From an uncultured cyanobacterium (lineage in GTDB: Bacteria > Cyanobacteriota > Cyanobacteriia > PCC-9006 > JAAUQQ01): a stretch of DNA of 64,000 nucleotides. The stretch lies in the NCBI GenBank assembly GCA_963718615.1, contig OY970368.1, positions 1,760,001 through 1,824,000 on the forward strand. Reading direction: 5' to 3'. Under the pieces are notes generated by a model. That model made no database searches. It saw only the letters and a list, made by a program, of their open reading frames with translations, and was not told the DNA's origin. A program made the translations under genes and the position numbers. This document shows positions 31,496-50,032 of this stretch, piece by piece; within the stretch, counting starts at the first letter, position 1; each line of letters starts with the position of its first letter.

Positions 31496-31509
31496 TTGAC
31501 TTATCCTCT
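31496..31509 (+). other. Left junction (attL): host ttgact + core TA + element tcctct
   Basis: ttgactTA is identical to 48658-48665; TAtcctct(aa) is the reverse complement of 48706-48713 and 48825-48834. Confidence 0.8.
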
Positions 31510-31516
31510 AAGGACT

Positions 31517-32179
31517 TCATTCAAGCACAGCGATCGCCGCTGCCCGCTGTCCCTCATCTACCTCAATATAGCGAGTCAGGGAAGAGAGAGAACGGTGACC
31601 CGTGATGGAGCGGATCACCGGCACGCTCAATCCAGCGCGAGACATTTCGGTGATGCTTCCCCGGCGGGTTGAGTGAGTTGAGTAGCCCCGGTTATGTAAA
31701 TCGACCCGCTTGAGGGCGCGGCGCAATGCCCGATCGGCGGCGCGAAGCGTCAGGGGTTGACCCGGTGAAACTAGCGAGGGAAACAGCCATCCTTCCTTAA
31801 TAACGGAAATCCCGATTTTTCGATAACAAGACTCTAGCGCCGGTCGATAGACTTTCAACTCTTGAGCAAGGGCGCGGGACACGGGAACGTCACGGGTTGC
31901 TCTGTCTTTACGGATGTTGGCAGGAATGGTGATAGAGCGGCGCGGCTTGCCCTCGGAGTCATAGCAATCGCCCACACGGAGCTGAAGCAGCGCGCCCCAT
32001 CGCTCGGTTGTGTGCCAAGCAATCGCGAACAGCATTCTATGGCTGTCCGTTATGAAGGCATCGCGAGTCTTTCTAAAAGTTTCTTTGTCGAATGGGGTTG
32101 CTTGCCCAAATCTATTTTGCTTAGCCACTACCTTTAACGTTCCGGTTTCATTTCCTGACAGCGTCTTTGCAGAACACAA
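31517..32179 (-). CDS. Small tyrosine recombinase (catalytic domain only)
   Basis: R (TTERWG), K (IRKD), HSTRR, GHRSL..L.RY catalytic residues present; likely GTG start at 32128. Confidence 0.9.
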   Translation of the reverse strand: MCSAKTLSGNETGTLKVVAKQNRFGQATPFDKETFRKTRDAFITDSHRMLFAIAWHTTERWGALLQLRVGDCYDSEGKPRRSITIPANIRKDRATRDVPVSRALAQELKVYRPALESCYRKIGISVIKEGWLFPSLVSPGQPLTLRAADRALRRALKRVDLHNRGYSTHSTRRGSITEMSRAGLSVPVIRSITGHRSLSSLTRYIEVDEGQRAAAIAVLE

Positions 32180-32332
32180 CCCTTTTTCTCTCGCTGCCAG
32201 GATAGCCGAAAGCCTTATAAATTGGGCACTGTGGGATTACGTAAGCCGTTCTGCTTTTAGATAAAAGAGGGCAATTTGCAGCAGAGAAATTGATAGCTAC
32301 GCTCGGTTTATTCGCATTCCGAGGAAGTACCC

Positions 32333-32635
32333 ATGACGGCCATTGCAAAGCTAAACATCCCCGACGGCTGCAACAGCGTCGAAAAAATCGCCGCTTGGGC
32401 GATCCTGACCCTGGTACGGCACAACCCGACGATGCGCGTGCTTGAGATTGACGACGAGACCCCGGTTCGAGTGGTGAGTTCGTCAGTTCTGGAGGCCGCA
32501 GGCGGGACTACTCGGCTGTTAGGCCGGGTGAGCCTGGAACTAAATGCAGGCTATGACATCAGCACCCTCCCGCTCTGGGAAGAGGTGAAAGACCTATCAA
32601 ACACGACCCTTAACGCTGGATACTTCAAGCCCTAA
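32333..32635 (+). CDS. Hypothetical protein, first gene of the putative virion operon
   Basis: RBS gagga; stop overlaps the next start (taatg). Confidence 0.75.
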   Translation: MTAIAKLNIPDGCNSVEKIAAWAILTLVRHNPTMRVLEIDDETPVRVVSSSVLEAAGGTTRLLGRVSLELNAGYDISTLPLWEEVKDLSNTTLNAGYFKP

Positions 32636-35023
32636 TGCCTATCCCCAATCCCGCCGGGGGACGGGGTTACACTCCCCCCTCCGCACCTCGCAGCACCCCC
32701 AGCGGGTTTCCTTCCGGAGGCTCTAGCCCCGGCGGGGTTGGCGGCGGCAAGCCCTCCTGGACCCGCGACACCGGCAACTACAAGCGGACCCAGTCCGCAC
32801 AGAACTACAAGCCGACAAGGGGGGCGAGTGGGGGGAGTAGCGCGGGGCAGATTCGCCGCGCGCCGATCCAATCGCGAGCGCCGGGAACTCAGGCGGCCAA
32901 GCCGCCCGGCGGAACCTCTCCCGCTGCTCAGGCTAGGGGCGCTGCGGGCACCTCTCCCGCTGCCATGGCCAAGGGCGCGGGGGGAGCGGCTGCGCTTCCT
33001 GCTGTGGCGGGAGCGGCCAAAGCACCCAGCGCCTTAGGGGCTGCGGGGAGCCGCTTAGGCCCTGCGGGGATTGCTGCGGGTGTGGGATTGCTCGCAGGGG
33101 AGGGGTTGCGGCGTAGCTTGGTTGAGCAGGGTCGGGAGGGGTTTGCCTACCCGTCGAATACTGGCGCATTGTTGGCGAACCCGGCTCGGACCGCTGTTGA
33201 TGGGTTGAGGGGACTGGGGGAGAGCTATGGGGATTTGCTGAATGGAAAGGGGAGCGAGGCGATCGCCACCGGCACCCCACCCGGCTACACCGCGCCGGGA
33301 GCACCGCCATTTACCGGAGGGCAAAGCCCTGGAGTCACCTATCGGATTACGTTCCAGAATACCGGGCAGACGTCTGCGGGAGCGAGCACTAGCATTCAAA
33401 CCACGGCGAACGTACCGGGTCCTGTTTCGGGCCTATCCAAGAGAACCAACACCGATGGAAGTTGGGAGTACTGGCTAAAGTACGGCAGCAATCAAGAAAC
33501 AAGGGTTAGGACTTGGGCGAATTTTTTCGTTTCCGGTGTCACTACAATCGCCTCAATCGTCCGCTCAGACGGGGCACCCGACACAGGCGGCGACCCACTA
33601 GGTCCCCCCGAACCCATCGCCCCACCGGCCCCAGTGCGCCCACCCACTCGCCAACCCCGACGCCCACCCACCGAAGACCCAACCCAAGAATCCAACCCAA
33701 GATCCAACCCAAGCCCCACCCGCCACCGAACCACCGCGCCCCGTTGAGCCACGGCTACCCGGTGAACCCGCGCCCCCCTATCGCCCACCCGCGACCGAGC
33801 CACCGCCCACAGAACAGCCCCCCGCGACCGAGCCACCGCGCCCCGTGCTACCCGGCGATCCACTTGAGCTACCGCCTGGGACGGAGCGAGACCCAGAGCA
33901 GGACCCCAAAAACGACAAGCCGACACAGCCCAAGACCCCGCCAATCTTTCCGCCGGTTATTCGCCGCAATATCACGACGCGGAAGACCAACACCAACGGC
34001 GCGGGGCCTCCGACCGGCTCGCAAAATGCCCCACCGGCACCGCCACTGAAGGTGAACCAAACCTCGCCGCCAACGTGCCGAGGGTGCGGCGCTGTGACCA
34101 GCTCAAAGCTGGATCAGCTCGGAGCTGGGCAGGGGGTGATTATCAACAACATCGGAGCACCGACGGACATCAGTCCGTTAATCGCGCTCCACGGAATCAC
34201 TCACGCCACGCAGGCCACCATGCTCACTCGCCTAGGGGCACAGCTTCCCGGCGGGATTGGGGGAGTGCTTGGGTTACTGGATGAATTCTTGCGCAAGGCA
34301 TGGAAGGCAACGAGGCTCGATAAAGTACTCAACGCCTTAAACACCTTGTTGCTAGTTCATAACGCTGCACTCCTTAGCCGGTCGCTCTTTCAGACCTTTG
34401 GAGAAGTCGCGAGCCAAGCCTTAAACCTGTTTGGAATCAAGGATGAAGAGAACAACCCCATCGACATCAATGAAATCCTAGGGGGGCAAATCACCAACCT
34501 TGTTAAGGGCGTGCTAGGAGATGCCCTATATACCAACGTCACGACGACTTGGGCAAAGGGTAGCGCCATTCTCAGCAGCGCGAGCCAAATCGTCTGGACT
34601 ATCCGCAGCATCGGAGATTCAAGCCGTGAGATCGCCGAATGGACAGCGGAGAACACCGGCAAAATCGGCAACGCGCTCAAACAATGGCGTATTGTCGGCC
34701 CCAACGCCTACAAATGGATGCCTGAGCGGGTTTCCAGTCAGAACGCATGGCAACTAAAAGTACAGAGAGCTCGCGACCAGGTCGAGGCTCTGGAGGATGC
34801 AGCCAGTTCCCTCAGTTCTGTGCTGGGCGAGGCCCAATCGATCCAGGATGAGTTTAAAGAGTTGGATGACCAACAGAAGCGCTTTAAGGATGCCATGAAA
34901 GCCGCGACACCCAAGGATCGGGAGGATAACGACATCGTTAAACTGGCGGCGGCAGAGGCCAAGGACGCCAGCAAATCACCCGCACTAGACGCTTTCAGCC
35001 GTAAAAAGGGGGATGAGTTGTAA
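32635..35023 (+). pseudogene. Large Gly/Ala/Pro-rich + coiled-coil protein (~795 aa if joined), split by a single +1 frameshift near 33690
   Basis: An extra A sits in the middle copy of a 12-bp DPTQ repeat. Removing it joins ORFs 32635..33747 and 33845..35023 into one open frame with repeated PATEPP motifs. Confidence 0.75.
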
Positions 35024-35376
35024 TGGCACTTCCTGATAATTTCAGCCCGGTTGAGCACTTCCAGGACTCAATCGGTCGAATCTACAACAAAGAGGTTAAA
35101 GACTGGTTCTCGGACCTTGACCCAGACGAGCTGGGCATCGACACCCCGCGCAGTTCACTAAGGACAGCGTGCTGGCATCAGGAGAACGATTCCGTCATGG
35201 TGACGGTCGGGCGAATGCTGCTGTTTGATATGGTGGTCGCCCGCAAGGTTCAGGGCAGCGGTAGCGACATCTATCAAGTGTCAAGACATTTGCCTGTCGC
35301 GACAATTAGAAGGCGGGGAGCCCACTGAATTGGCAAAAGGAAATGAGAAGCGGCAATCTCAGGTCAAGACGACAAT

Positions 35377-36291
35377 CTAAGATCGCTTCTGGTGTGTCGA
35401 TGTTTGGGAGTCAGATTCAGAGGATTTTGCCGGGAGTGCCTTCAAGTTCTCAGAGCGCTGGTGAGCGGAGCGTTTACGAAAACTGTCCGCCTTGATTTCG
35501 AGAATGACCGCATGGTGAATGAGGCGGTCAACGGCGGCGACGGTCATCATGGAATCACCAAAGATGGAGTTCCACTCACTGAACGGCTGATTGGCAGTGA
35601 CCATGATGCTTTTGCGCTCATAGCGATAGGCAATGAGTTCAAAGAGAACGGAGGTTTCTGCCTCGGATTTTTGGACATAGCCGAGGTCATCAATGATCAC
35701 GAGGTCAAAGCGGTCGAGCTTTTTCAGGGCAGGCTGAAGCTGGAGATGAAGCTTTTCTTTTTGGAGATACTGCACCAGGGTGGTGGCACAGAAGAATTTG
35801 ACGCGCTTGCCCGCTTCCAGGGCGGCACGAGCGATGCCAGCGGCCAGATGGGTTTTGCCGACCCCAGAAGGTCCGAAGAAGAGACAGTTTTGGGCGTCAT
35901 CAATCCACTGGGGTTCAGTGGCGAGTTTTTGAATCGGGAGAGGGTTAACCAGGGGCAGGTGTGTCCAATCGAAATTGGAAACCGTTTTGGCGTTGGGCAG
36001 TTGAGCTTCGGTGATGGCTCTTTGGAGGCGCAAAGCCTTGCGGCGGTCTGTTTCGAGTTGGCACAGGGCCAAGAGAAATTGCGCGTAGGACCAGGTCTCT
36101 CGCATGGCTTGCTGCTCCAAGGTCTCCCAGTGGTTGAGCATATGGGATAAGCGCAGGTGCTTGAGCTGAGCGCTGAGGCTTTGGTAAGGGCTCAGCTCCG
36201 GTTGAGACGAGCTCTGGTTCTGCATCTGGGATGACGCTGCTGTGGGTGAACAGAAGGGCATCGTAGTCGTTGAGGTCATGTTGTTGGACAT
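35377..36291 (-). CDS. istB: IS21 helper ATPase IstB
   Basis: GPSGVGKTHLA, LVIIDDLGY, T.NQPFSEW, AAVDRLIHH; true start probably 36225 or 36261. Confidence 0.95.
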   Translation of the reverse strand: MSNNMTSTTTMPFCSPTAASSQMQNQSSSQPELSPYQSLSAQLKHLRLSHMLNHWETLEQQAMRETWSYAQFLLALCQLETDRRKALRLQRAITEAQLPNAKTVSNFDWTHLPLVNPLPIQKLATEPQWIDDAQNCLFFGPSGVGKTHLAAGIARAALEAGKRVKFFCATTLVQYLQKEKLHLQLQPALKKLDRFDLVIIDDLGYVQKSEAETSVLFELIAYRYERKSIMVTANQPFSEWNSIFGDSMMTVAAVDRLIHHAVILEIKADSFRKRSAHQRSENLKALPAKSSESDSQTSTHQKRS

Positions 36292-37735
36292 TCACGGTGG
36301 GGAATTCGAGTTTGGTGAGCAACTGAAAATGGAGTCTGAGCCTTGAGAGGGTGAGGGTTTTGGCCTCAATCTCTGGGAAGAGGTAGTCAGCGACCGCCGC
36401 TTCCTTGTTTTGGGTCGCCGCAATATAGAGGGCTTCGACCATGAGCACGGCGGCAGAATCAAGCTCAAAGCCAGCCTGGAGCTGTTTCCAGAGTTGGTGA
36501 TAGCGCTCATTGGGCAGGAGGTCCTCTCGCCAGGTGCTGTGGAGGAAGGCCAAGGGCTTTTTGCGCAACCCTTCGATGACATGGTGATAGTCCACCGAGC
36601 GGGCGCGCCGCTTGTCCTTGTCAGTAGAACGAATCCGTTTCAACCTGAACACTTCATGGCCTTCGAGGTAGCCCATCAGGCGGTTGTGGTGCAGATGCAC
36701 TTCCAGGGACCGGCCAATTAAGCGAGACGGCACGCTGTAGAGCATGCAGCGGATATCAATCGTGCTGTTGCTGCTCACCTTAGCGGTGAGGAGTTCGTAG
36801 TCCGCAGCCCGGTATTTGGGCAACGCCTGGAGATGCGCTTTCTCATGCTCATACTTATCCTGATGCTGGGCATTGAGCTTGGCCACACAGTCATTGAGCA
36901 GGTCTTGATAGTCGCTGACGCTAGCGAAGTCGGTGCTGCCGCGCAGGTACATCGCTTGGACAATGCGGTTCTTCAGATGACCGTGGGGGCCTTCAATAGA
37001 ACCGTTCTCGTGGGCGATTCCCCGGTTGTTTCGCGTCGGTTGCAACCGATAGTGCTCACACAGGTCGTCATACAAGCGCGTCAGCGGTTTGGTCTTCTTC
37101 CCACCCAGATTTCGATAGGCCGCACTCAGGCTATCGGTGCGATGCTGCTTTGGAGCCCCGCCGCAGGCAAACAGGGCATTCTGCAATCCTTCGGATAGGG
37201 CGACAAAGCTTTCACCCCCCTCGATTAACTCCGCGTAGGACCAGCCGCTGTAGCCCAAGCGGTAGTGATAAATCAAGTGCTCATAGGGCTTTCCATTTAT
37301 CGTCACCACCGTCCCTTTGAGTTCGGTGAAGTCGGAAAATCCTTGCACCCCCGGCTCGTGACGCAGCTCAAACATCACCTCGGGAGCTGGACCATACAGT
37401 GCTTTCCAGGTTCTCACTCGCCGCTGAAGCGTCCTGAGCACTTGCGGATATTGACCCGGATATTTGTCCTGCAAATGCTCAAATAACGTCGTCGGTTTCA
37501 GTCTTGGCTCAGCTCGCAGCATCGCCTCTAGTTCGGCTTCCCAAAGACCGTTGAGTGGATCTGGCCGGGTCCGCACCCCGGTGCCCTCTCCACTCCCCTG
37601 CTGCCACTCGTTGGCATCCATTCGTTGCGCGGTTCGCACCGAAAATTCCGCCACCGCTGCCGCATCTTGCTGCGACAGGCCATGCTCCTTTGCATTCATG
37701 TACACTCGCTGTTGATACATTATTACTCTCGACAC
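35945..37735 (-). CDS. istA: IS21 transposase IstA
   Basis: HTH, LRTLQRRV, SDFT, HRTDSLSAA, HENGSIE, YSVPSRLIG. Confidence 0.95.
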   Translation of the reverse strand: MSRVIMYQQRVYMNAKEHGLSQQDAAAVAEFSVRTAQRMDANEWQQGSGEGTGVRTRPDPLNGLWEAELEAMLRAEPRLKPTTLFEHLQDKYPGQYPQVLRTLQRRVRTWKALYGPAPEVMFELRHEPGVQGFSDFTELKGTVVTINGKPYEHLIYHYRLGYSGWSYAELIEGGESFVALSEGLQNALFACGGAPKQHRTDSLSAAYRNLGGKKTKPLTRLYDDLCEHYRLQPTRNNRGIAHENGSIEGPHGHLKNRIVQAMYLRGSTDFASVSDYQDLLNDCVAKLNAQHQDKYEHEKAHLQALPKYRAADYELLTAKVSSNSTIDIRCMLYSVPSRLIGRSLEVHLHHNRLMGYLEGHEVFRLKRIRSTDKDKRRARSVDYHHVIEGLRKKPLAFLHSTWREDLLPNERYHQLWKQLQAGFELDSAAVLMVEALYIAATQNKEAAVADYLFPEIEAKTLTLSRLRLHFQLLTKLEFPTVNVQQHDLNDYDALLFTHSSVIPDAEPELVSTGAEPLPKPQRSAQAPALIPYAQPLGDLGAASHARDLVLRAISLGPVPTRNRPPQGFAPPKSHHRSSTAQRQNGFQFRLDTPAPG

Positions 37736-38586
37736 TCGTTAGAGTCCTTTCTTTCCAGGGGGACCCTATGAGTGTCTTTTTTTGTCGATCGCCACGCCAG
37801 TGAGCTGTCAAAGTCTCACGTCTGTCTCACGATCCAAGCCACGCTTTCGCGACAACTCCCGCCAGGAAATGTCGAGCAGCCGCCAATGCTATTGTCGTCT
37901 AACAGACATCGAAACCTCTCCCCCCTACCAGGTGAACCGACGGCATAAACCGCAGGTCACCCTGTTCTTCCTAGAAGATGCAGACCGGATTGAGCCCGGT
38001 TACCGTCAGGTTGAAGGGCGGATCAGCTTCCGCATCATGGACGAAACCGTGGAAACCATGACCCAAGCGAAAGCCACCCAGCTTGCCAACCGGGTGAAGA
38101 CCGCCATGGGGACCGGCGGCGGATTTGTCTGGAAGAAGGGCAAAGCCATGGCGACCTATGCCGACTGGGACAAGGGGTATCAACTCCAATTGTTCACCCC
38201 CAACAAGGTCGAGGCTAAGCGGCTGATTGAGCAGATTCTTGACATTCAGCAGCACACGCCGAACTGGAACTACCTCAATTACGAAGAAAACGACGACCCT
38301 AACGACGCTTACCCGACAATCCCGCCGACCCAAATCATCTTGGGCAAGTCGAGGCGGCTGGCGCGGCGACGGCCACGGGCTGACGTGAGGTTTCAGTATG
38401 CGGTTTTGACCCTCGCGGGTCTGCCGAATCCCATCGCTTTGTACGATCGCAGCGGGCGTTACCCTGACCCACTGGTCCTTTGAGTCGTTTGGATAATCTC
38501 GGAACGGTTTAACCCTTCCGAAAATCGAATATGCACTGATACGAGGCCAGAGTAGATGCAAAGTTTTTCGACGGATCTGAAGAATC

Positions 38587-39180
38587 ATGGCTAAACGCCG
38601 ACCTTACTCGCTAGTCCTGATTGGTGCTCGCAAAGAGTCCGCTCGGACCAAATATCTACAGTTTTTGGCTGGTGCAGCCGATCGCCCCAGCCGCATTGGC
38701 TCCCAAGGCGCTCGCCCGGAGCGCGTGAGCTTGGCCGTGCAACCTTTTGCCTTTTCGCTGCCTGAAAATATTCTTGCTCAAGGCTCCGCTCTTCTGCCTG
38801 CCGTTGTTTCCCTACAGGGGATCGCAGCAGTCAGCGAGCGCGTCAAATTGGGCGTCAAGACCGGCGCTCCGGCTACCTCAACCCCGACGGGTGTCAGCCT
38901 GACCCGGATTGCTGACACAGATGAGCTACTTGGCATCAAGAACTTCAGCCCAGCTCGCATCATTCGCCGGGTTTACCAAACCAAAACGGCAACTAAGAAA
39001 AACTCTGAAATCACTGGCCTTGCCTACGGCTACCGTAAGTCAACCTCGGTCTCTGTTCCTTTTGGGAAAAAGAACGCGACGGACACGATTACGGATGCCT
39101 TCAAGGCCGTCAGCGATGCGATCGAAGGTGCAGACGGAAACGGCCTAACTCAGGTCTTTCTGAAAGAAGAGGATGTCTAA
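38587..39180 (+). CDS. Basic hypothetical protein, paralog A (candidate virion protein)
   Basis: K/R-rich; clear full-length paralog of the next gene. Confidence 0.75.
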   Translation: MAKRRPYSLVLIGARKESARTKYLQFLAGAADRPSRIGSQGARPERVSLAVQPFAFSLPENILAQGSALLPAVVSLQGIAAVSERVKLGVKTGAPATSTPTGVSLTRIADTDELLGIKNFSPARIIRRVYQTKTATKKNSEITGLAYGYRKSTSVSVPFGKKNATDTITDAFKAVSDAIEGADGNGLTQVFLKEEDV

Positions 39181-39183
39181 GCT

Positions 39184-39765
39184 ATGGCTAAACGCAACCC
39201 TTACTCTCTGGTATTGATTGGGGCGCGGAAAGCTTCGGCTCGGACCAAGTACCTTGAGTTCCTGTCTGGCAGAGCCGACCGGCCTAGCCGGATTGGAACA
39301 AAGGGGCCTCGCTCACAAAGGTACCCGCTAGCTCTCCGCCCCTTTGCGGGAATTGTCCCAAATACTGTACTAGTGGCCACATCCGCATCGAAAGAGGCAG
39401 TTTTGGCCCTACAGGGATTCATTTCTATCCAAGGGCGAGTTGTTTATCGCTACTCTCCCTTGCCTGCGGAGATTCAGCTCACTTTCCCAGGCGCGGGACT
39501 AGACTTTTTAGAAATCAAGGGGTTTAGCCCAGCGCGGATCATTCGCAAGGTCTATCAAACTCGGACAGCTACGGTCAAAAAGTCGGAGACGACCGGCCTA
39601 ACCTATGGCTATAAAGCCTCGTCTACGCTTTCAATCCCAATCGGAAGAAAGAACGCGACTGATTCGCTCGTTGACGCCTTGAGCGCAGCGGGTGGAGCAA
39701 TTAGGGGGGCTGATGGTAGCGGGCTGACCAAAGTCTTCTTGAAAGAAGAGGAGATTCCCGCGTGA
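39184..39765 (+). CDS. Basic hypothetical protein, paralog B
   Basis: Shares MAKR.PYSLVLIGARK.SARTKYL, FSPARIIR.VYQT and GLT.VFLKEE with paralog A. Confidence 0.75.
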   Translation: MAKRNPYSLVLIGARKASARTKYLEFLSGRADRPSRIGTKGPRSQRYPLALRPFAGIVPNTVLVATSASKEAVLALQGFISIQGRVVYRYSPLPAEIQLTFPGAGLDFLEIKGFSPARIIRKVYQTRTATVKKSETTGLTYGYKASSTLSIPIGRKNATDSLVDALSAAGGAIRGADGSGLTKVFLKEEEIPA

Positions 39766-40058
39766 TTCATTGGATAGACCCCATTTTGCCCGAGGTTTTT
39801 CTAACCCCGGATCACAATCAGGCCGACACGGCCCAGGCGACCTTAGAAGCCCTTGAGCGGCAACGCATGGTTAAGGGCTTCTTCGAGGGGAGTATTGATG
39901 GGGACGTGGTTGATGATTGCCTCGCTGAACATGGGATTAATCCCCATGCTTTTTGGGTGCAGGCAGAAGAAAATATTGAGGAGTTCATTCTGATGGACCC
40001 TCAGGAAATTGAAGGTCTAGACCGGCTTTTGAGACATGGCCCTTACTTGGGATCCTGA
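39762..40058 (+). CDS. Acidic hypothetical protein
   Basis: Translationally coupled (gtga overlap). Confidence 0.6.
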   Translation: MIHWIDPILPEVFLTPDHNQADTAQATLEALERQRMVKGFFEGSIDGDVVDDCLAEHGINPHAFWVQAEENIEEFILMDPQEIEGLDRLLRHGPYLGS

Positions 40059-40518
40059 AAATAGTTCCAACTGGGAACTGACCTATTCGGATCAACGGTT
40101 TGAGGAGCAGAGGGAGGGATATCTCCCAAGGCGAAAGCGCATTCAGCCCTTCGTCATCCCAGTGCTTATCTCCTCACCGTTGATTGCGATTTGGACAGAC
40201 TCAGACGGTAAAAACGACACTTGGAACCTTGCGGGCTGGGTCCGGGGTGCCATTGCCGTACCCAGCTTAATCAATGACATCAAGCTGCTCAACGGCCCGA
40301 GTCAGGCGCTGCAATTGAGGGAGGCGACGCGGTTTGACTTTACGGCCAATCCGGCCAGTAGTTACCAACTGCGTATCTTCCCCCAAAGATACCTGCCAGA
40401 TCTCCGCATCAAGGTCTACGAATACCGTGGTCCTATCGGTGACAGCACCGAAGAATTGATCACAGTAACTAGAGTTGACCTTGCAAGAATCGAAACCAGA
40501 ATCAATGCCCTACTCTGA
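40036..40518 (+). CDS. Hypothetical protein, beta-rich with C-terminal coiled-coil (candidate structural)
   Basis: Coupled within the operon. Confidence 0.65.
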   Translation: MALTWDPENSSNWELTYSDQRFEEQREGYLPRRKRIQPFVIPVLISSPLIAIWTDSDGKNDTWNLAGWVRGAIAVPSLINDIKLLNGPSQALQLREATRFDFTANPASSYQLRIFPQRYLPDLRIKVYEYRGPIGDSTEELITVTRVDLARIETRINALL

Positions 40519-41716: not shown

Positions 41717-41988
41717 TGATGAACTATTTCCGATTGATGGGGCTGATTGCCCAGCTCGCACAGATTGCAGAATCGACCGGCGGCCAAGTGCCCAAGGGCG
41801 ATGCGGGGCTGTATTTCCTTTGCCGCGCCTTCTGCGAGCGGTTGGAGGAGCGCAACCCCGGCATTGCTGAGGCGGCGGGGTTTGATTATGAGGTGCTGAC
41901 CTATCGAAATTTGGTGCCGAGGCCCCCCGCGACCTTTGCCCAGGTTCCGACGGCGGGACTATTGCGGGAGGATGACCCATGGAGTTAG
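41716..41988 (+). CDS. Hypothetical protein
   Basis: Coupled ORF with RBS gggg. Confidence 0.55.
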   Translation: MMNYFRLMGLIAQLAQIAESTGGQVPKGDAGLYFLCRAFCERLEERNPGIAEAAGFDYEVLTYRNLVPRPPATFAQVPTAGLLREDDPWS

Positions 41989-42188
41989 CGATCGCCCTCG
42001 CGGGTTTCATGGCCACATCAGCAGCGACCATCCTCAAGATCAACAATCATCTGGATAAGCGCTTTGATTTCCTTGAGCGGCGCATGGAAATCTTGAGCAC
42101 TTCCGTCGAGGGCAATCAGCGGCTAGTGGATCATCGGCTTGAGGTGCTGGAAGACCAACGATTTACGGTAAACGGGAAAGGACGATGA
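41979..42188 (+). CDS. Small single-TM coiled-coil protein, holin-like
   Basis: N-terminal hydrophobic helix plus coiled-coil, directly before the amidase. Confidence 0.5.
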   Translation: MELAIALAGFMATSAATILKINNHLDKRFDFLERRMEILSTSVEGNQRLVDHRLEVLEDQRFTVNGKGR

Positions 42189-42748
42189 GAACGGTAGTGA
42201 TTGACCCAGGACACGGCGGATTTGACCCTGGAGCCGTGGCCAATGGGTTGCTTGAAAAGGATGTAGCGCTAGACATTGCAAGGCGGGTGCAGCGGCTAAC
42301 GCAGCGGCGAAACCTAGACTGCATCTTGACCCGTGACAGTGACCCAGCGCCGGGAACCGAGTTAAGCCTGGAGCGGCGCTGCGAGATTTCCAACGCGGCG
42401 CGAGCGGATTGTTTCGTTAGCATCCACTGCAATGCGGCGTCGAATCCCAACGCCTATGGCAGTGAGACGTTTTTTTGCAGGGGTAGCTATGGCGGCGCGG
42501 CGCTGGCCCGGTCGATTCAGGGGCAGTTTAATCAAAAGGTGCGAGAAATCCCTGAGCGCCGGGTGAGTGGTGCGGGGTTCTATGTCCTGAAATACACCGA
42601 TGCCCCGGCGGCGCTGGTGGAATGTGGATTTTTAACCAACACCGACGACGCCACGCTGCTGAAGAAAGAGGCGGTGAGACAGGCGATCGCCCAGGGAATC
42701 TCTGATGGCATCTTGGAATGGTTAAACGCGGGGGAAGCGGCGGCATAA
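42185..42748 (+). CDS. N-acetylmuramoyl-L-alanine amidase (Amidase_3), putative endolysin
   Basis: IDPGHGG.DPGA, EK, FVSIHCNA, PAALVECGFLTN; no signal peptide. Confidence 0.93.
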   Translation: MRTVVIDPGHGGFDPGAVANGLLEKDVALDIARRVQRLTQRRNLDCILTRDSDPAPGTELSLERRCEISNAARADCFVSIHCNAASNPNAYGSETFFCRGSYGGAALARSIQGQFNQKVREIPERRVSGAGFYVLKYTDAPAALVECGFLTNTDDATLLKKEAVRQAIAQGISDGILEWLNAGEAAA

Positions 42749-42768: not shown

Positions 42769-43182
42769 CTACAGCAGACTGAGCTGGGCTTCTTTGACCT
42801 TCCGAGTTTTCCACCCTCGGATCATCTTCAAAATTGAATCAGCACTCTGACCACGGGCGATCGCTTTCTCTACGGCGATCGCCCGTTGTTGTGCGATGGG
42901 GTTGCTCACATTGCCGCCGGGAATGTGGATGGAGTGGACAACCTTATGGCCAGCCCAGACCTGGTAACGGAAATACAGCACCCCATTGGTACCACCGGGG
43001 AGCTTGTGTAAGGCATGACCGACGCTGAGCGTAGGAGGCTCCGTAGAGCTAACGAACGACTCTCGATCGGTTTTGCGCCGCATAGGATGAGGGGTGATGC
43101 TTTGATCACCCTCGCCAGGTGCGGCGGCGCTAGAATTCGTTAGCAACGGTGGGACAGGGGTTTGGGGGTTTGGTGTGTTCAT
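42769..43182 (-). CDS. Hypothetical protein
   Basis: YFRY.W...HIPGGN..N..A..RA..V..AI; last gene of the leftward operon. Confidence 0.55.
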   Translation of the reverse strand: MNTPNPQTPVPPLLTNSSAAAPGEGDQSITPHPMRRKTDRESFVSSTEPPTLSVGHALHKLPGGTNGVLYFRYQVWAGHKVVHSIHIPGGNVSNPIAQQRAIAVEKAIARGQSADSILKMIRGWKTRKVKEAQLSLL

Positions 43183-43676: not shown

Positions 43677-43679
43677 GGG

Positions 43680-44615
43680 TTAGGCCAGTTGTTGTGCTTC
43701 CAGAATGCCCAGCTCTGGACCCGCGAGACCGTAGGGGATGCCGAGGCGATCGCATTCCTCCCGCACCTTGGCACGCTGCCCAGGGAATGCCCGCCACTTG
43801 GCTGCAAGGCGAGCGGCTTGAGCTTCAGCAGTGGGCGGCGCGGTGGGAACCGGCGGCGGCAGCTCTGGCCAGAGGGCACCCGCGAGAATGCGATCTGCCA
43901 CAGTGGGCGGGGCTTGCTGACTGGCTTGAAATTCTGCCCAGAGAGCGGGGCGCTGCTTGGCGATCCAAGATTCAGCAGCGGCGTGGGGGGACTGGGGAGG
44001 CTGAGGGAAGCGCCGCACCTTGGCCAGGACGAAATTAAAAAATTCGGGGTCAGCGGCGGCGGCGGAAAATTTGCCACCGGCAGTTTGAGCAGCCTTAGAC
44101 CGGGGTGTGTTTTGGGGAGCTGATACCGCAACCGGGGTACTGAAGCTTCTCCGGACTGGGTTCGGTTCCGGTTCGATCGCGTGCGCTTCTCTCTCTCTTT
44201 TTATTGTCTTAGAGTCTTTAAATTCTTTATTGTTTGAGGACTCTTCAAAGCCAGTGTTTAAGCGGGTTTCAGAGGTTGGATGTTCACCAGCGTGAACGTC
44301 TTGTTCACCAGCGTGAACGTCTTGTTCACCAGCGTGAACGTCTTGTTCACCAGCGTGAACGTCTTGTTCACCAGCGTGAACGAGCCAGCCCTTTGCATCC
44401 AGTGATTTTAGAGCGGCACTGATACCGCTTTTGGCCAATCCCGTTGCACGGGCGATCGCAGTCGGACCAGGGCGATCGCCACGGCAAAACGGGTCATGGG
44501 CTTTGAGGTAGAGATAGACAATGATCTCTACCTTGGAAAGCTCGGAAAGCTTGCAGACCGTGGATTCCGTGAGGCGATAGTGTTTCACTGTGGCGGTTCC
44601 TCCACTTGAAACCAC
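43680..44615 (-). CDS. Putative replication initiator (N-terminal HTH, internal iterons)
   Basis: VYLYLK...IARATGLAKSGISAALKSL..KGWL winged-HTH, followed by HAGEQDV repeats and an AT-rich tract. Confidence 0.7.
   Translation of the reverse strand: MVSSGGTATVKHYRLTESTVCKLSELSKVEIIVYLYLKAHDPFCRGDRPGPTAIARATGLAKSGISAALKSLDAKGWLVHAGEQDVHAGEQDVHAGEQDVHAGEQDVHAGEHPTSETRLNTGFEESSNNKEFKDSKTIKREREAHAIEPEPNPVRRSFSTPVAVSAPQNTPRSKAAQTAGGKFSAAAADPEFFNFVLAKVRRFPQPPQSPHAAAESWIAKQRPALWAEFQASQQAPPTVADRILAGALWPELPPPVPTAPPTAEAQAARLAAKWRAFPGQRAKVREECDRLGIPYGLAGPELGILEAQQLA
44281..44382. repeat. 21-bp tandem repeat x~5 with internal palindrome (candidate ori iterons)
   Basis: Unit tgttcaccagcgtgaacgtct (gttcac-N4-gtgaac): four full identical copies plus one 18-bp copy. 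Confidence 0.9.
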
Positions 44616-44770: not shown

Positions 44771-44812
44771 GGGTGCTCCAAACGACAAAGCCGTAACCCC
44801 AATGGGTTACGG

Positions 44813-45186: not shown

Positions 45187-45213
45187 ATTTACTGGGCATT
45201 CACTACACCTCAT

Positions 45214-45292
45214 TTTTGCACGTGGATAAAAGGGGATTGACTTAAAGTTATCCCACGTGGATAATGCTGTCAAAGGTTTTCCACGTGCGAAA
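45214..45292. promoter_or_regulatory. Overlapping divergent sigma70-type promoters with three CACGTG-centred operators
   Basis: Plus strand TTGACT(45237)-17-GATAAT(45260); minus strand TTGACA(45273)-17-TAACTT(45250); CACGTG at 45219, 45254 and 45282. Confidence 0.75.
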
Positions 45293-45877
45293 ACCAATAA
45301 AACCGAATACCGGGCACCCGCACGGCAGCGAGTACAACAACTTGCTGATGGGGTTGGACTCCCCAGGCCCTTCCCCCCCCTAAGGCCCCGCACCATTGAC
45401 CGCCTGAATTCCCATCAGCCTCGGTGAAATTATTGACCGCCTGATGTCAGCCTCGGTGAAAGAGCGCGCGGGAGCTGCAAACCGAATCATTTCTAGTTTG
45501 GTGAGTGCTTGCTCACCGGGCACAGGATTGTTTTGTCTATGCACTTTGAAATCTGGAGAATGGGCGAAAACGCCTGTAACCTATACGGCGCAAGCCCTCA
45601 CAGCAGACTGCACAAGCTGTTAGATGCCGCCCCAACCGGGCGCTATCACATCAAACAAATACCACCGGCAAGGGATAGGGAGGACCGCGACCAGGGCAAC
45701 GCAAACCCCCGACGGACCGAAGCATCCTAGGATCTCCGTCAATCTGAACCAGCGGCGTGAACAACGCGCCGCGCCCTGCTCAAACTTGAGCCACGACCGC
45801 CACGATCACCAACAAAAAAGGGCCAGAAGGCCCAAAGTGTTGTCTACAAGCTGCTTGAAGCAATTACCAAAACCACT

Positions 45878-46357
45878 ATGACCCAAGAAACACCGGAAAC
45901 ACCGCGTAATTACGAGGAATTGACCCAGTTATGGGGCATTGACATCGAATCGCTCAAGAAAGCTCGCACCAAGGCCGAATTAGTCGAGGGCGTGCATTTC
46001 ATCCGCAAGCCTGAGGAGCAAGGGCGGCTCTATTTCACCTCCGAAGGCCAGGACGCGATGGCTAAAGCCCTTGGCATTGCGCCGATGGCGGAATGTTCGG
46101 ACCTTGGCTCCGAACATTTGGAGGGCGGCTCCGAACATTTGGACATTCCCGAGACCATGGGGGAAGCGATGGCGAGTCAGTTTGCCTATCCAGCGGCGAT
46201 CGCCTTCTTCCAGCACTTCCCCGCTGCGGTTGCTCGGGAGGTCCGACGCATGATCCAATCGCCCTCCGATGAAGAGAAACCCATTGTCTATGGGGCCATG
46301 CAGCTTGCTATGGGAGCGGCTACCGACCCAAAAGGCTACTTGGAGGGCAAATCATGA
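45878..46357 (+). CDS. Hypothetical protein, possible N-terminal HTH/excisionase-like DNA-binding domain
   Basis: YEELTQLWGIDIESLKK...EGVHF...RLYFT..G pattern. Confidence 0.55.
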   Translation: MTQETPETPRNYEELTQLWGIDIESLKKARTKAELVEGVHFIRKPEEQGRLYFTSEGQDAMAKALGIAPMAECSDLGSEHLEGGSEHLDIPETMGEAMASQFAYPAAIAFFQHFPAAVAREVRRMIQSPSDEEKPIVYGAMQLAMGAATDPKGYLEGKS

Positions 46358-46698
46358 GGCATCCAGAGCTTGATGATACCGCTGTTCCCTCATGGGCATT
46401 TGGTCACCAGCAACCCTACATGGCCGTTGGACAGCCCTATGCCCCGGTCGCCCCTGTCTATCAGCAACCACCGAGCAAGGCCCCCGCCTCCGCTCCTAAT
46501 GGGGTTGGGTCGATTCTTTGCATGGCGCTGAGTGCGTTTGTCGCTGGGGCGGCGATCGCCTCAGTCTTTGCCTACCAGGCCCCAAGCGCTGTTAGTGCTC
46601 GGGAGCTGGAACAGCGCGCTGCCATGGAATCCCAGCGGGCCGCTCAGTACCAAGACCGTTTGCTTCAAGTTCGTAACGTTGCTTGTGAGACTTATTAG
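46354..46698 (+). CDS. Single-TM hypothetical protein
   Basis: Hydrophobic helix ILCMALSAFVAGAAIASVF plus coiled-coil; atga overlap. Confidence 0.65.
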   Translation: MRHPELDDTAVPSWAFGHQQPYMAVGQPYAPVAPVYQQPPSKAPASAPNGVGSILCMALSAFVAGAAIASVFAYQAPSAVSARELEQRAAMESQRAAQYQDRLLQVRNVACETY

Positions 46699-46700
46699 CG

Positions 46701-47201
46701 ATGTCCATATTCAATAAACTGACCACCCTAGGCCGAGGGTCTAGCGCCAAGATTGGAGGCCATGCCCTCAGAGATTCTTCTGTGATGGCACCGACTACCC
46801 CAGGGGCAATCAATCCCATGAACCCCGGCGCAATGGCTCACGCTCGGTCTGTGCCCATCATTCGTCAGCCCCGCTACTTCAAGCCAGGGGAAGACCAGGC
46901 GCTTCAAGAATTCGCCTATGCCAAGCGCCAACAGCTTGCGGCATCACGGCGAGCCTATAAAGCCCTGGAGTCGGTGGAACACTCCGATGCTGAACTGACA
47001 GCAACCCATCGGCAATACGAGGCCACCGTTGCTGATGGGGAGCTTCATAAGAAAGCCGCTGATGTGAAGTACGCACGGCATCTTCACCACCAGCGCCCTC
47101 AATACGCCATGCTCAATCAGGCCGTGGCTACGGCACGGGTTGAGGCGGGCTCAACCATTGGGCGCTACATGGCCACCGTTCAGCAGCTAGCAGGAGCATA
47201 G
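46701..47201 (+). CDS. Helical hypothetical protein
   Basis: Tightly packed within the operon. Confidence 0.65.
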   Translation: MSIFNKLTTLGRGSSAKIGGHALRDSSVMAPTTPGAINPMNPGAMAHARSVPIIRQPRYFKPGEDQALQEFAYAKRQQLAASRRAYKALESVEHSDAELTATHRQYEATVADGELHKKAADVKYARHLHHQRPQYAMLNQAVATARVEAGSTIGRYMATVQQLAGA

Positions 47202-47204
47202 ACC

Positions 47205-47480
47205 ATGAAGGCGATGCACCTGACGAGCTTGTTCTTGATGGCGTGCATCGCCTCTAGCGGGCTTGCTTGGTTGGCTGGAGTTGCGCCGCCGTTGGGGCGA
47301 ACTGTGGGTTTTCTGTATTCCCTCACGGCGATCGCCTGGGTCGCCTGTTGGGTCCTCGATGAGCCGATCCAGCGTTATTTGGCGGTCGATGAGATGACCT
47401 ACCAGGCGCTGCTGATTGGGTTTGCGATCGCTGTCCTGTTGGGAGGTCTAGCGCGGCTATGCCTGACATTGCTTGGATGA
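47205..47480 (+). CDS. Small 3-TM membrane protein
   Basis: RBS aggag; three hydrophobic segments. Confidence 0.65.
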   Translation: MKAMHLTSLFLMACIASSGLAWLAGVAPPLGRTVGFLYSLTAIAWVACWVLDEPIQRYLAVDEMTYQALLIGFAIAVLLGGLARLCLTLLG

Positions 47481-47947
47481 AAACCAGTGCCTTTCTGGCT
47501 GCATCATCAGCCCTTTGGGTTGCATCGATGTCCCCAGCGGTACCGCTGCCCACTCAGGCGCTGTGCTTGGTTGGGGCGCTGGCTACCTGCGGGTTTGCCG
47601 TATCGGAATCCCGGCGCTCTATTCCTTCCGCCATTCAGCAGCGGGTGCGGGCTGGATTGGATATGCAGATGATGCAGCAGGAGATGGCGATCGCCGCCTC
47701 ATCCATGGAACAGGCCATCATGAGCCAGTACTTTCCCGGCATGGTGGAGCATCCACAAGCCGCGCGCGAGCAGCTTGAGCAGATGTACGCCGCGAGCCCT
47801 GAATGCAGCCCTGAGCTATACCGAGCGGTGAAGATGCTGGCCAACTCTGGCTACTCCCACGAGGGCATTGCACGGGAGATTTTAGGCGTTGAGGACGTTG
47901 CCAAGGTTGGACGAATTTTGAAGTTTGGAGAGGAGCAAGGATGGTAG
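47477..47947 (+). CDS. 2-TM protein with C-terminal HTH-like segment
   Basis: Hydrophobic N-terminus; GYSHEGIAREILG. Confidence 0.6.
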   Translation: MKTSAFLAASSALWVASMSPAVPLPTQALCLVGALATCGFAVSESRRSIPSAIQQRVRAGLDMQMMQQEMAIAASSMEQAIMSQYFPGMVEHPQAAREQLEQMYAASPECSPELYRAVKMLANSGYSHEGIAREILGVEDVAKVGRILKFGEEQGW

Positions 47948-48243
47948 ACCACGTAAGACTTTCAGAGACATCGCCCTTTTTTGAGGCGTTTGGCGGTTCG
48001 CTGCCAATTCGCTTCGGCGGCCCGGTTTATCAGGTCGATTTGGATCGCTGTACCGGCGTTCAGATTGAGGCGCTGGCTCGCATTGGCCAGCAACTGCTTG
48101 ATGAGGATGATGAGTTGCGGGATAAATCGGTCGCGGTCGTTGCCCAAAGCTTTTATACGGTCGGAGTGAATGTGAAAATGACCCACATCCACCCCGCTGT
48201 TAATCAGGCTTTCGCAGCCCTGGAGAATCATGATGCTTTCTGA
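47941..48243 (+). CDS. Hypothetical protein
   Basis: RBS gagga; coupled. Confidence 0.55.
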   Translation: MVDHVRLSETSPFFEAFGGSLPIRFGGPVYQVDLDRCTGVQIEALARIGQQLLDEDDELRDKSVAVVAQSFYTVGVNVKMTHIHPAVNQAFAALENHDAF

Positions 48244-48568
48244 TGTTCGCTACGGTTCCCGGCTCAATGGCACCTATATCGAGGTGGGGGGCGATTTAGA
48301 GCCCGGTGATAGCGCGATGGATTGTCTTAATCAGCTTCAAGTTCTAGTCGAGCGGGAGCTACACCGCTATGCGCCGCGTGAGTTCTGCGAAATCAACCAT
48401 GTCGATCCAACCAAGACCGGCAGCTTAACCAACCGCATGAGCATCAAAATGCAGCGGGCGCGGCTTGAGGTCGATTGCCTTCATGGGCGTGAGCAGTTGA
48501 TTTCCGATCTGACGCTCATTTTGACCCGTGGCCATGAACTTTTGAAGCAGCTAAACAAAACCGCCTGA
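48230..48568 (+). CDS. Hypothetical protein
   Basis: RBS ggag; coupled; last gene before the ncRNA. Confidence 0.55.
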   Translation: MMLSDVRYGSRLNGTYIEVGGDLEPGDSAMDCLNQLQVLVERELHRYAPREFCEINHVDPTKTGSLTNRMSIKMQRARLEVDCLHGREQLISDLTLILTRGHELLKQLNKTA

Positions 48569-48579
48569 CGAGCGCCGCC

Positions 48580-48845
48580 GGACACGCGGCGCGAAACGGG
48601 GAACGCTTCCCCGTCGCGGATGGTGTCCAAAGCCGCCGCACGTATGAGAGAGGCTTATTGACTTACCGGCATCCTGGGTTAGGTGCATCTGCCAGACGAG
48701 GCTTGAGAGGATATCGGGCCTCTCTCTTGTAGCAGCATCTAATTAGGAAGCTTTTTAACATATCGGCAACCTCATGCGTCAAATCCCATGGCTTAAGGGG
48801 TATTTGGGCTCTTTTTTGGAGCCTTTAGAGGATATCGGTACGCAA
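48580..48845 (+). ncRNA. Putative bridge RNA with 5' stem-loop and three guide-bearing modules
   Basis: 5' hairpin ggacac..acggggaa/ttccccgt..gtgtcc (48580-48628); stems gagagaggc/gcctctctc and tgcgt/acgca; three ...TAtcgg modules whose variable parts match the element junctions. Confidence 0.8.
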
Positions 48846-48856
48846 AGGGGATCCAA

Positions 48857-50020
48857 TTGAAGATTTTAGGGATTGATGTCTCTAGGGGAAGCATTACCGT
48901 ATGCCCCCTGGAGATTTTGCCGCGCGAATTTAAGCGCTATCGCGAGGGAATTGAGAAATTTACCCTCAGCGTCGAGGGTGTCGAGGGCTTGCTGGCCATG
49001 GGCGCGAGTGGCGCGATACTGGAGCCAACCGGTGGCCATTACTCGCGGCTATGGGCGCTTAAGCTGGAAGCGGCGGGCGTAGTGGTCCGATGGGTTGAGC
49101 ATGGGGCGATTGATGCCTACCGCAAATCTCACCGATGCCCGAATAAGTCAGACCTACATGACGCCGTAGCGCTTGCCTGCTATGGGCTGGAGAACTGGGA
49201 GAGGCTTGAGTATTTCATCAGACCTAGCGACCTGGTGCTGAAAGAACACTGCTTAGCGATTCAGCACCTTAATCGCTCGGTCAATGGCTCGGTCAATCGC
49301 CTTAAGCAGCAACTCAACCATGAGTGGCCAGAGGTTGCACGCTTTACCGCCGCGACCAAATGGGGCGAGGAACCGCCGCCGCTACTGAGATACATTGCAG
49401 GGGAAGAGACCCGATCCAAATGGGGCGATATTGCAGCAGACAGCATCGGGACCGGCATTGGGCGTTTTTCTCGGATGCTTGCCCAGCAAGTCTGTATGCA
49501 GCAACGGCACCGGGCAGAGATTGAGCGAGCGATTGAGCTTGAGATTGAGCGCGAAGACTTCAAACCCTACCGGCTCGCTATGGAGCGCTGCGGAATTACC
49601 GCCTATCGCTGCATGGCGGCGCTGATTGTGGCCCTCTACCCGTTTGAGCGCTTTCTGAAGGATGGCAGGATCATCTATGAGCGCATCGAAACCAAGACCG
49701 GTAAGCGGGCGCGGCGCAATCGTTCCCGCGCGGCGTTTAAGCTGGCTTGCGGATTGGGAATGATTTGGTATCAGAGCGGTGATAAGCAGGGGTTTAGACC
49801 CGGTGGATCATCTGAAGCCAGGAAAGCGCTGTATTTGTGGGCGCGTATGGCGATCGTGATTCGGGCGGGGCTTCAAACCCAAGAGACAAACCCGTTCATT
49901 CTGGAAATGCAGGACTACTATCGATCCAATACCGCACCGACAAAGCAGAAGATTCAAAGAACGGTGCGACGCGTGCTCGATAGGTTGTTTGTAGAATTGG
50001 TTCGGGAGTTTGAGCGTTAG
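48857..50020 (+). CDS. IS110-family (DEDD RuvC-like + Ser) recombinase
   Basis: ILGIDVS, LEPTG, KSDLHDA (DEDD) and C-terminal CGL...YQSG...G...RKALY; TTG start after aaagggg. Confidence 0.9.
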   Translation: MKILGIDVSRGSITVCPLEILPREFKRYREGIEKFTLSVEGVEGLLAMGASGAILEPTGGHYSRLWALKLEAAGVVVRWVEHGAIDAYRKSHRCPNKSDLHDAVALACYGLENWERLEYFIRPSDLVLKEHCLAIQHLNRSVNGSVNRLKQQLNHEWPEVARFTAATKWGEEPPPLLRYIAGEETRSKWGDIAADSIGTGIGRFSRMLAQQVCMQQRHRAEIERAIELEIEREDFKPYRLAMERCGITAYRCMAALIVALYPFERFLKDGRIIYERIETKTGKRARRNRSRAAFKLACGLGMIWYQSGDKQGFRPGGSSEARKALYLWARMAIVIRAGLQTQETNPFILEMQDYYRSNTAPTKQKIQRTVRRVLDRLFVELVREFER

Positions 50021-50032
50021 GGCGTATGTTAA
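50019..50032 (+). other. Right junction (attR): element agggcg + core TA + host tgttaa
   Basis: TAtgttaataag matches the reverse complement of 48751-48762 at 11/12; agggcgTA matches aggg-gTA at 48796-48802. Confidence 0.8.

Follow-up and report, generated by a model that had tools for sequence, protein, structure and literature searches.

The 64,000-nucleotide stretch analysed here (the window; contig OY970368.1, positions 1,760,001 to 1,824,000) comes from the 6.1-Mb genome of an uncultured cyanobacterium and carries, between a spoIID gene and a GT2 (glycosyltransferase) gene, a long block of genes whose last member codes for a recombinase of the IS110 family. The non-coding region directly upstream of this gene contains four guide-like segments matching the two ends of the block, which had been noticed in an initial annotation of the DNA and were recovered with the same coordinates and letters (10/11, 10/10, 11/12 and, with a gap, 7/8 positions). 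The block, 31504-50026, is very probably one mobile element of the IS110 (bridge recombinase) type with about 14-17 kb of cargo, the recombinase and its RNA lying at the right end. The features on which this reading depends are the following:

31493..31503, + strand: left target flank with the left TA core (31502-03); 10/11 against the left target guide; in two relatives with an empty site (loci L003 and L004) it runs directly into the right flank
31502..31519, + strand: left end (LE) TAtcctctaaggacttca, complementary to the right donor guide (10/10, extended 15/18 against 48817-34)
48561..48619, + strand: predicted type I hammerhead ribozyme (stem I CCGC/GCGG; core CUGACGA...GAAA), with the predicted cut after GUC, 48615/48616
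48616..48856, + strand: putative bridge RNA, with the left target guide (LTG, 48655-65), a second copy of the right donor guide (RDG', 48698-48717), the right target guide (RTG, 48751-62), the left donor guide (LDG, 48796-802) and the right donor guide (RDG, 48825-34)
48857..50020, + strand: IS110-family DEDD/Ser recombinase, 387 amino acids (aa), TTG start (PF01548, PF02371, NF051857)
50019..50036, + strand: right end agggcg, right TA core (50025-26) and right target flank; right target guide 11/12, left donor guide 7/8 gapped

The boundaries of the block were established from related genomes, independently of the RNA guides. The end of spoIID was searched for in 40 relatives, and 19 loci were checked for a downstream GT2 gene; the spoIID-GT2 adjacency is kept in two of them, L003 (relative G001) and L004 (relative G003), which belong to another genus of the same family. 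Both read without interruption, and with a single TA each, the empty site catttgttgacTTAtgttaata that had been predicted next to spoIID and GT2 from the window alone (the letters are ggcatttgttgacttatgttaataggtgcc in L003 and gcatttgttgatttatgttaatcaagtgcc in L004). In the four-way alignment the left flank of the window matches through TTGACTTA and the right flank from TATGTTAAT on. Because both relatives have the site unbroken, 31504-50026 is a single insertion of 18,523 bp at one TA, which is now found on either side (31502-03 and 50025-26), as the initial annotation had proposed for the core. The length of about 16 kb given there does not hold for the present insert, but it does for the element once a secondary insertion of the IS21 family (35272-37904) is subtracted, which leaves 15,884 bp. 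This TA is the sole identity between the two junctions, and the identical crossover (overlap) sequence of about 6-8 bp that characterises tyrosine-integrase elements was not found there, which makes a tyrosine recombinase crossover a poor fit. No att-type direct repeat around an inner block was detected in the repeat analysis of the window, the left-end 12-mer occurs only once in the whole genome, and the block does not stand out by base composition. Among the assembled contigs of four metagenome runs, compared with 31000-50900, no joints were found, and these contigs are uninformative on excision in either direction; one contig of run X2 starts exactly at 50025, and no conclusion was drawn from it.

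The conserved ATG of the GT2 gene (50068) follows the insertion point at a distance of 42 nt, and this gene may therefore now be transcribed from inside the element. The target half-site TTGACTTA (31495-31503) resembles a -35 box, and the exact sequence ATTGACTTA is the -35 of a promoter-like site within the element (45236-45244).

The recombinase gene ends with a TAG codon (50018-20) 4 bp before the right TA. Its product contains an N-terminal RuvC-like DEDD domain (PF01548, 31.1 bits with a cut-off of 29) and a C-terminal Tnp (Transposase_20) domain (PF02371, 22.0 bits with a cut-off of 21.3), and residues D7, E56, D99, D102 and S307 are invariant across 40 aligned homologs, of which the window protein is the first row. 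S307, within a YQSGD motif, would be the catalytic serine by analogy with S241 of IS621. With 319 bits the protein is well above the cut-off (180) of the NCBIfam model NF051857 ('transpos_IS110_2'), under which this subfamily is already catalogued, and with 56.5 bits it does not reach the cut-off of 140 of NF033542, the canonical RNA-guided IS110 model. NF051857 was found above its cut-off in 24 of 301 sampled genomes of the phylum, with 1-6 matches each, and in none of 14 control genomes. The homologs compared comprise 59 proteins, most of them from one or a few contigs and the closest (P0002-P0005) 55-63% identical to the window recombinase; the homolog loci (134 from alignment-based scans and seven from relatives) include one repeated piece of DNA (L022 is L083) and two that overlap (L155 and L156). 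A comparison with plasmid records returned one match, at 29% identity, and single-protein patterns for close relatives of the recombinase gave nothing in genome or viral contigs.

The putative bridge RNA is about 230 nt long (241-nt region 48616-48856) and its guides follow each other in the same order as in IS621 (LTG, RTG, LDG and RDG) around the TA core, which agrees with the geometry initially proposed. The LTG (TTATTGACTTA) is identical to TTGTTGACTTA (31493-503) at 10/11 positions and at 8/8 over its exact stretch; the reverse complement of the RTG agrees with 50025-36 at 11/12, again with 8/8 over the exact stretch; and the reverse complement of the RDG is TATCCTCTAA, identical over 10/10 positions to 31502-11, the only exact + strand match of this complement in the window. 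These three guides match the junctions fixed from the relatives exactly over 8-10 nt. When the 241-nt region was shuffled 300,000 times, with those junctions kept fixed, 1,159 shuffles contained TTGACTTA, 793 the reverse complement of TATGTTAA and 95 the reverse complement of TATCCTCTAA, and any two of the three matches occurred jointly in 9 shuffles; the real RNA has all three. In the minimum-free-energy fold the left and right target guides face each other across one 9x9 internal loop, and in the alignment of the homolog RNAs the guide positions are hypervariable and their flanks conserved. The dinucleotide 3' of both right guides is UC, which fits the handshake rule of IS621 at most at one position. 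RNAalifold recovered 8 pairs from a MAFFT alignment of 10 bridge RNAs, a set too heterogeneous for stem covariation to be claimed for this RNA.

The RNA holds, in addition, the second copy of the right donor guide (GAGGCTTGAGAGGATATCGG, 48698-48717), which is 90% alike to GAGCCTTTAGAGGATATCGG (48819-48838) and is placed in the apical loop of a hairpin within the target loop. This copy changes in step with the true RDG in the TA-core homologs L031, L032 and L033. It might act with the LTG so that the left junction is read inside a single loop, and it may help the complex to recognise that junction for excision.

Immediately before the bridge RNA lies the hammerhead, which was absent from the initial reading of the locus. 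The alignment of the regions upstream of the homologs has the form CCGC-CUGAYGAG-stem-CGAAAC-stem-GUC-GCGG; in the window the catalytic core is complete (CUGACGA, GAAA and GUC), the minimum-free-energy fold is a three-stem (three-way) junction, and the bridge RNA begins with the four bases that form the 3' strand of stem I. The stop codon TGA (48566-68) of the last upstream open reading frame (ORF) sits within the CUGA of the core. In a set of 35 distinct sequences chosen by the core pattern only, in all of which the core is invariant, 92.0% of the cells of the three helices are paired, compared with 26.7-51.9% when the partners are slid; 12 of the 18 pairs show changes on both sides, and covariation scores 0.437 (controls stay at or below 0.099; 0/500 shuffles reached the observed value). 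A covariance model built from the ribozyme and the first conserved bases of the RNA (R1) has one match in the window (73.9 bits, E 3e-20), also its only match in the whole genome, and it matches 58/78 and 56/62 homolog loci (114/140), ending at about 9,730-9,800 where the recombinase starts near 10,000. One locus, L090, has a second R1 match (11231-11313, 43.3 bits) just past the recombinase stop, besides the usual one upstream. Sequence, fold and covariation support the ribozyme, which would release the 5' end of the bridge RNA from the transcript of the upstream operon.

Related elements were examined by reading the guides from the alignment of the upstream RNAs and then seeking the predicted junctions in each locus, and the family evidence rests on these individually read cases, not on an unguided scan. 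In L085 (Egbenema, complete genome) the left junction CATAGGA-TA-TTCTCT is located 6.5 kb upstream of the recombinase and the right junction AAGGTGTG-TA-TATAAGA 73 nt past its stop, and in L033 (a metagenome contig) the left junction GTCAGAT-TA-ATCTCTAG is located 6.7 kb upstream. In the DNA compared for L084, L030 and L031 only the right end was located, ctagggac-TA followed by the complement of their own RTG with one mismatch.

In the Nostoc subgroup the core is GA, and Nostoc linckia NIES-25 contains three 15.9-kb copies at two sites, with the left end 14.4 kb upstream of the recombinase gene. Copy A reads TTAGGAT-GA-[element]-TTAGAGT-GA-AATAATT, and copies B and C, which are in tandem, read TTATGAT-GA-[element]-TTAGAGT-GA-ATCCCCG...[element]-TTAGAGT-GA-ATAATAA; the left junction of copy B was found exactly 15,895 bp upstream, as the repeat unit predicted. 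The target guides of copy A (TAAGGATGA / GATTATTTC) differ from those of copies B and C (TAATGATGA / TTATTATTC), and each set fits its own flanks at 8/9 to 9/9 positions. The inner joint of the tandem consists of right end, GA core and left end, that is, the donor sequence, which is indirect support for circle excision and RNA-dependent insertion of the IS110 type. That three copies occupy two sites, with guides reprogrammed to match, indicates that large units move as wholes. Among the readable cases it is the rule for a unit to be large and to have its RNA gene at the far right end. In none of the homologs that could be read does the left end sit directly before the RNA, a set that leaves aside some distant homologs on contigs of 1.5-1.9 kb (those of Oscillatoria HE19RPO, about 1.9 kb, could be compact multi-copy IS). 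The view that the whole block, rather than a 1.5-kb insertion sequence (IS), is the unit is thus upheld by the empty site in two relatives and by the long-range left ends of three other elements.

Extraction of guides by regular expressions in the Nostoc subgroup (33 loci) left most ends unlocated and revealed a recurring internal half-site, ccccggcgcg-GA-AACACCC, present 2-4 kb upstream of the recombinase in many loci of the group (among others, at 7546 in L041, 5819 in L112, 6934 in L145, 7912 in L149 and 7201 in L150). It matches the RDG complement with one mismatch on one side, and its left side is conserved and not guide-matched; sites of this one-sided donor-like kind are tied to partial excision in the available portion of a preprint by Hu, Xie, Yang and Rubin (bioRxiv 10.64898/2026.08.14.744561).

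By analogy with IS621, the first loop of the RNA would pair with the chromosomal target TTGACT-TA-TGTTAA and the second with the element's joined ends, agggcg-TA-tcctctaa, and recombination at the TA core would have inserted the whole element, in circular form, between spoIID and GT2, leaving a TA on both sides. Excision would yield the agggcg-TA-tcctct circle and the restored ttgacTTAtgttaa. Since the left end is 17 kb away from the RNA gene, the junction promoter used by small IS110 elements cannot serve, and the bridge RNA would probably be co-transcribed with the upstream genes of the + strand and then freed by the hammerhead, cutting between 48615 and 48616.

The cargo extends from the left end to the ribozyme and includes:

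31517..32179, - strand: short tyrosine recombinase, 220 aa (PF00589 2.5e-15; weak Xer-like NCBIfam matches), with its stop 14 bp from the left end
32333..35271, + strand: cargo ORFs of 100, 370, 392 and 101 aa with no named function (no Pfam, PHROG or NCBIfam family)
35272..37904, - strand: secondary IS21-family insertion (istA/istB), 2,633 bp (IstB 4.6e-66, Mu-transpos_C_2; 6-bp duplication GACATC)
37905..42188, + strand: cargo ORFs with no named function in family and repeat scans, including two paralogs and a 413-aa coiled-coil protein (40475-41716)
42185..42748, + strand: N-acetylmuramoyl-L-alanine amidase, endolysin type (Amidase_3 2.3e-50; PHROG 435 endolysin 1.9e-47)
42769..43182, - strand: conserved 137-aa protein (no family match; homologs in recombinase loci)
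43680..44615, - strand: replication-initiator-like winged-helix gene (PHROG initiation families 2e-4 to 1e-2 and MarR_2 3e-4, all weak)
45237..45265, + strand: promoter-like site TTGACT-17-GATAAT (a 10/12 consensus match only), ahead of the + strand gene string
45444..48568, + strand: about 10 small, tightly packed ORFs running into the ribozyme (from the ORF list; no families)

The conservation of this cargo was analysed by tblastn with 29 proteins of the block against 139 homolog loci, 56 of which have at least 5 kb of upstream flank. Homologs of the tyrosine recombinase are present in 51 loci (42/56 of those with the longer flank), on the strand of the IS110 gene in 44/45 and mostly 4-8 kb upstream of it, and homologs of the 137-aa protein in 33 (31/56); those of the 392-aa, 101-aa and 233-aa proteins are present in 9, 5 and 5 loci, L085 and NIES-25 among them. 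L085 has no match to the tyrosine recombinase. Cargo homologs travel with the recombinase, and the cargo is homologous across recombinases that are just 28-46% identical. The module coding for the tyrosine recombinase and the 100-, 370-, 392-, 101- and 233-aa proteins (31517-38483) has, in the window and in L085, an orientation relative to the IS110 gene that is the inverse of the one in NIES-25 (L155), L145 and L100. The tyrosine recombinase, in which H-x-x-R and H...Y motifs were read by eye, is short like the DNA invertases, and a role in inversion or in multimer resolution can be guessed.

The IS21 landed in the element later. Its ends are defined by comparison with other, near-identical copies in the genome (at least 12, at 99.9-100%), because of which it is considered currently or recently active in the host; without it and its 6-bp duplication, the length of the element comes close to the 15,895 bp of NIES-25. 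Contig pieces from run X1, a freshwater metagenome, are about 90-99% alike to most of the block and none covers 35648-37639; no piece bridges this gap, and the pattern hints at a relative of the element lacking the IS21. The two paralogs (38587-39180 and 39184-39765) are adjacent, code for 197 and 193 aa and are 56% identical; in 5.8 billion proteins just 12 members of this family occur, one of them labelled 'PPE-repeat protein' by one source. Within the 5' part of the initiator-like ORF there are iterons, four to five perfect 21-bp direct repeats (TGTTCACCAGCGTGAACGTCT, 44281-44385), which if translated would give a repeated HAGEQDV peptide, and the true start of this gene is for that reason probably downstream.

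Several observations weigh against a single mobile bridge recombinase element. The LDG (AGGGGTA, 48796-802) is the weakest of the four guides, agreeing with AGGGCGTA (50019-26) at only 6/8 positions ungapped and 7/8 with one gap. The left end of L084 was not found within 30 kb upstream, and an unguided scan for right junctions in 89 loci found a match to the own guides with at most one mismatch in 33/89, compared with 23% of 8,008 pairings with guides of other loci, a modest and noisy enrichment. The Rfam hammerhead model RF00163 aligns over its full length (positions 1-45) in a 121-nt search at 16.3 bits (E 0.15), below its gathering score of 34, and in a 20-kb search it gave no match at E <= 1. 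The recombinase is single-copy in the genome, the IS21 cuts the 101-aa cargo ORF near its 3' end, and the available portion of Hu et al. reports that no mobilisation of whole units was detected above about 20 kb.

Three other histories have been considered. The one that survives best, although improbable, is that the locus grew in place, a small IS110 element having gained DNA stepwise by half-site recombination, so that the block would now be a fossil, immobile as a whole. Progressive additions, tandem duplication and a loss of whole-unit mobility linked to size are all described in the available portion of Hu et al., and the single copy bearing an IS21, together with the one-sided donor-like site ccccggcgcg-GA-AACACCC that recurs inside many Nostoc-group loci, would suit such a history. 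The empty site of the relatives indicates, on the contrary, that the two ends came in at a single TA, without any additional host DNA. Stepwise growth is also opposed by the homology of the cargo between left end and RNA across such divergent recombinases, and by the three copies of NIES-25 at two sites with guides reprogrammed to match.

A nested insertion, in which an IS110 of about 1.5 kb entered the TA and a 17-kb tyrosine-integrase element then landed in the first bases of its left end, has a very slim chance of being right, even though in a single genome it would look no different. Integrase genes are often found at the edges of prophages, and the tyrosine recombinase gene does end 14 bp from the left end; but the same long distance from left end to RNA, with homologous cargo, is found in L085 (where the tyrosine recombinase has no match), L033 and NIES-25, the upstream cargo ORF has its stop codon right against the ribozyme, and no att-type direct repeat flanks the inner block. 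Least credible of all is a scenario in which the block owes its integration to the tyrosine recombinase, with the IS110 gene as a passenger at the block's edge, since, despite the H-x-x-R and H...Y motifs of that enzyme and its co-occurrence with the IS110 homolog in 42/56 loci, the two junctions share only TA, both are spelled by the RNA beside the IS110 gene, and in L085 the junctions match with no tyrosine recombinase detected.

The initial annotation spoke of virion-like genes and of a temperate virus-like element, which found no support: no capsid, portal or terminase was detected among the ORFs of the block (20 compared with PHROGs and 27 with Pfam), and no conjugation genes were recognised in the same scans; the NCBIfam models likewise yielded no virion gene. 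Besides the IS110 gene, family matches in the block are limited to the Amidase_3, the weak initiator-like gene with its iterons, the tyrosine recombinase and the IS21. The ESM Atlas gave only leads scoring below 0.9 to viral clusters, and the AlphaFold2 models of the 197-aa paralog family (pLDDT 59) and of the 413-aa protein (pLDDT 35) are poor and uninformative, Foldseek comparison of these low-pLDDT models with pdb and viral libraries yielding nothing at E <= 0.001. By tblastn, the 392-aa protein had no match in 50,697 phage records. A lysis module (the amidase) and a replication module (the weak initiator matches and 21-bp iterons) are present, neither of them specific to viruses; the gene content points to a circular replicon, either plasmid-like or virus-like, and the label 'prophage' is unproven. 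A bolder proposal, advanced only tentatively, is that these elements are self-replicating cyanobacterial episomes, possibly small viruses, that use a bridge recombinase as their only integrase and have its RNA cut from a polycistronic transcript by the hammerhead, in which case, because the RNA would be excised from that transcript, competence for integration would follow expression of the operon. If true, these elements would provide the first natural example of a ribozyme processing a guide RNA for DNA recombination, and the first temperate replicon with its att site written in RNA.

IS621 and other bridge recombinase elements of the IS110 group were reportedly presented by Durrant and colleagues in 2024. 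As in that group, the window recombinase is of the DEDD and Ser type and the non-coding RNA is directly upstream of its gene; as in IS621, a target loop with the left and then the right guide precedes a donor loop, the left guides are in top-strand sense and the right ones complementary, and a 2-bp core common to the four guides flanks the element. The 'handshake' guides of the IS621 bridge RNA are treated in the available portion of Hiraizumi et al. 2024 (PMC11208158). Unlike in IS621, whose core is CT, the core here is TA, or GA in the Nostoc subgroup, about 14-17 kb of cargo separate the left end from the RNA, and the target-loop hairpin contains the extra RDG copy; the RNA of about 230 nt lies behind a hammerhead, whereas small IS110 elements use a promoter rebuilt at the circle junction. 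The protein, moreover, falls below the NF033542 cut-off and fits NF051857, in a subfamily with 1-6 copies per genome. Classical IS110 elements measure roughly 1.2-1.6 kb and have no cargo, in contrast to the 18,523 bp of the present one.

The cautious remark of the initial annotation that a virus-like element integrated in this way was not known to have been described does not stand as written, given that the available portion of Hu et al. describes cargo-bearing IS110 loci of up to about 100 kb, with tandem modules and half-site growth, and argues that compactness does not define IS110. The present elements resemble those loci, so far as that portion of the preprint goes, in having an IS110 recombinase that bounds many kb, a bridge-RNA-like region that matches the target flanks, whole modules duplicated in tandem (here in NIES-25) and cargo derived from mobile elements. 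The loci described there carry mostly plasmid-derived or resistance cargo and have often grown downstream of the transposase module; unlike them, the window element has as cargo a conserved backbone kept with the recombinase over deep divergence, and its RNA is linked to a ribozyme. The words ribozyme, cyanobacteri, prophage and virus are absent from the main text of that preprint. In the available portion of another preprint, COMPASS (10.64898/2026.10.21.760802), bridge RNAs and a divergent hammerhead cluster are treated separately.

The ribozyme resembles the type I hammerheads of RF00163 in its CUGANGA, GAAA and GUC-cut core and in its three stems with stem I open, and differs from the members of that family in scoring below the gathering threshold and in its fixed position against a bridge RNA. 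No natural link between a hammerhead and IS110 or a bridge RNA, and no description of this cyanobacterial lineage, was found in the literature, as represented by articles apart from their supplements, which may list cyanobacterial elements. In synthetic constructs, a hammerhead placed 5' of a CRISPR guide RNA frees the guide from a longer polymerase transcript; the present case would be a natural counterpart of such engineered ribozyme-flanked guides, for a recombinase. Site-specific insertion of a probable circular replicon beside a conserved gene recalls temperate phages and integrative plasmids with tyrosine integrases, as do the amidase, the tyrosine recombinase and the initiator-like gene with its iterons; unlike them, the element has no att repeat beyond TA and no recognisable virion or conjugation genes, and its site is spelled by RNA.

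What appears to be new, judging from the literature covered, is a conserved cyanobacterial lineage of bridge recombinase elements of 8-16 kb whose guide RNA is coupled to a hammerhead, together with the second RDG copy and the visible retargeting of guides between copies within one genome (NIES-25). Bridge recombinases are studied as tools for the insertion of large DNA, and this natural lineage moves units of 8-16 kb in which a long distance separates the left end from the gene for the guide RNA; its apparent ribozyme release, with no dedicated promoter, suggests that bridge RNAs can be expressed from inside longer transcripts. More than 100 natural pairs of RNA and recombinase, with TA or GA cores, are available for mining, and the copies of NIES-25 with reprogrammed guides amount to a natural retargeting experiment. 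The finding also bears on IS110 enzymes as integrases of larger replicons, and it explains a recurrent cyanobacterial gene cluster composed of a tyrosine recombinase, a 137-aa protein and an IS110-like gene.

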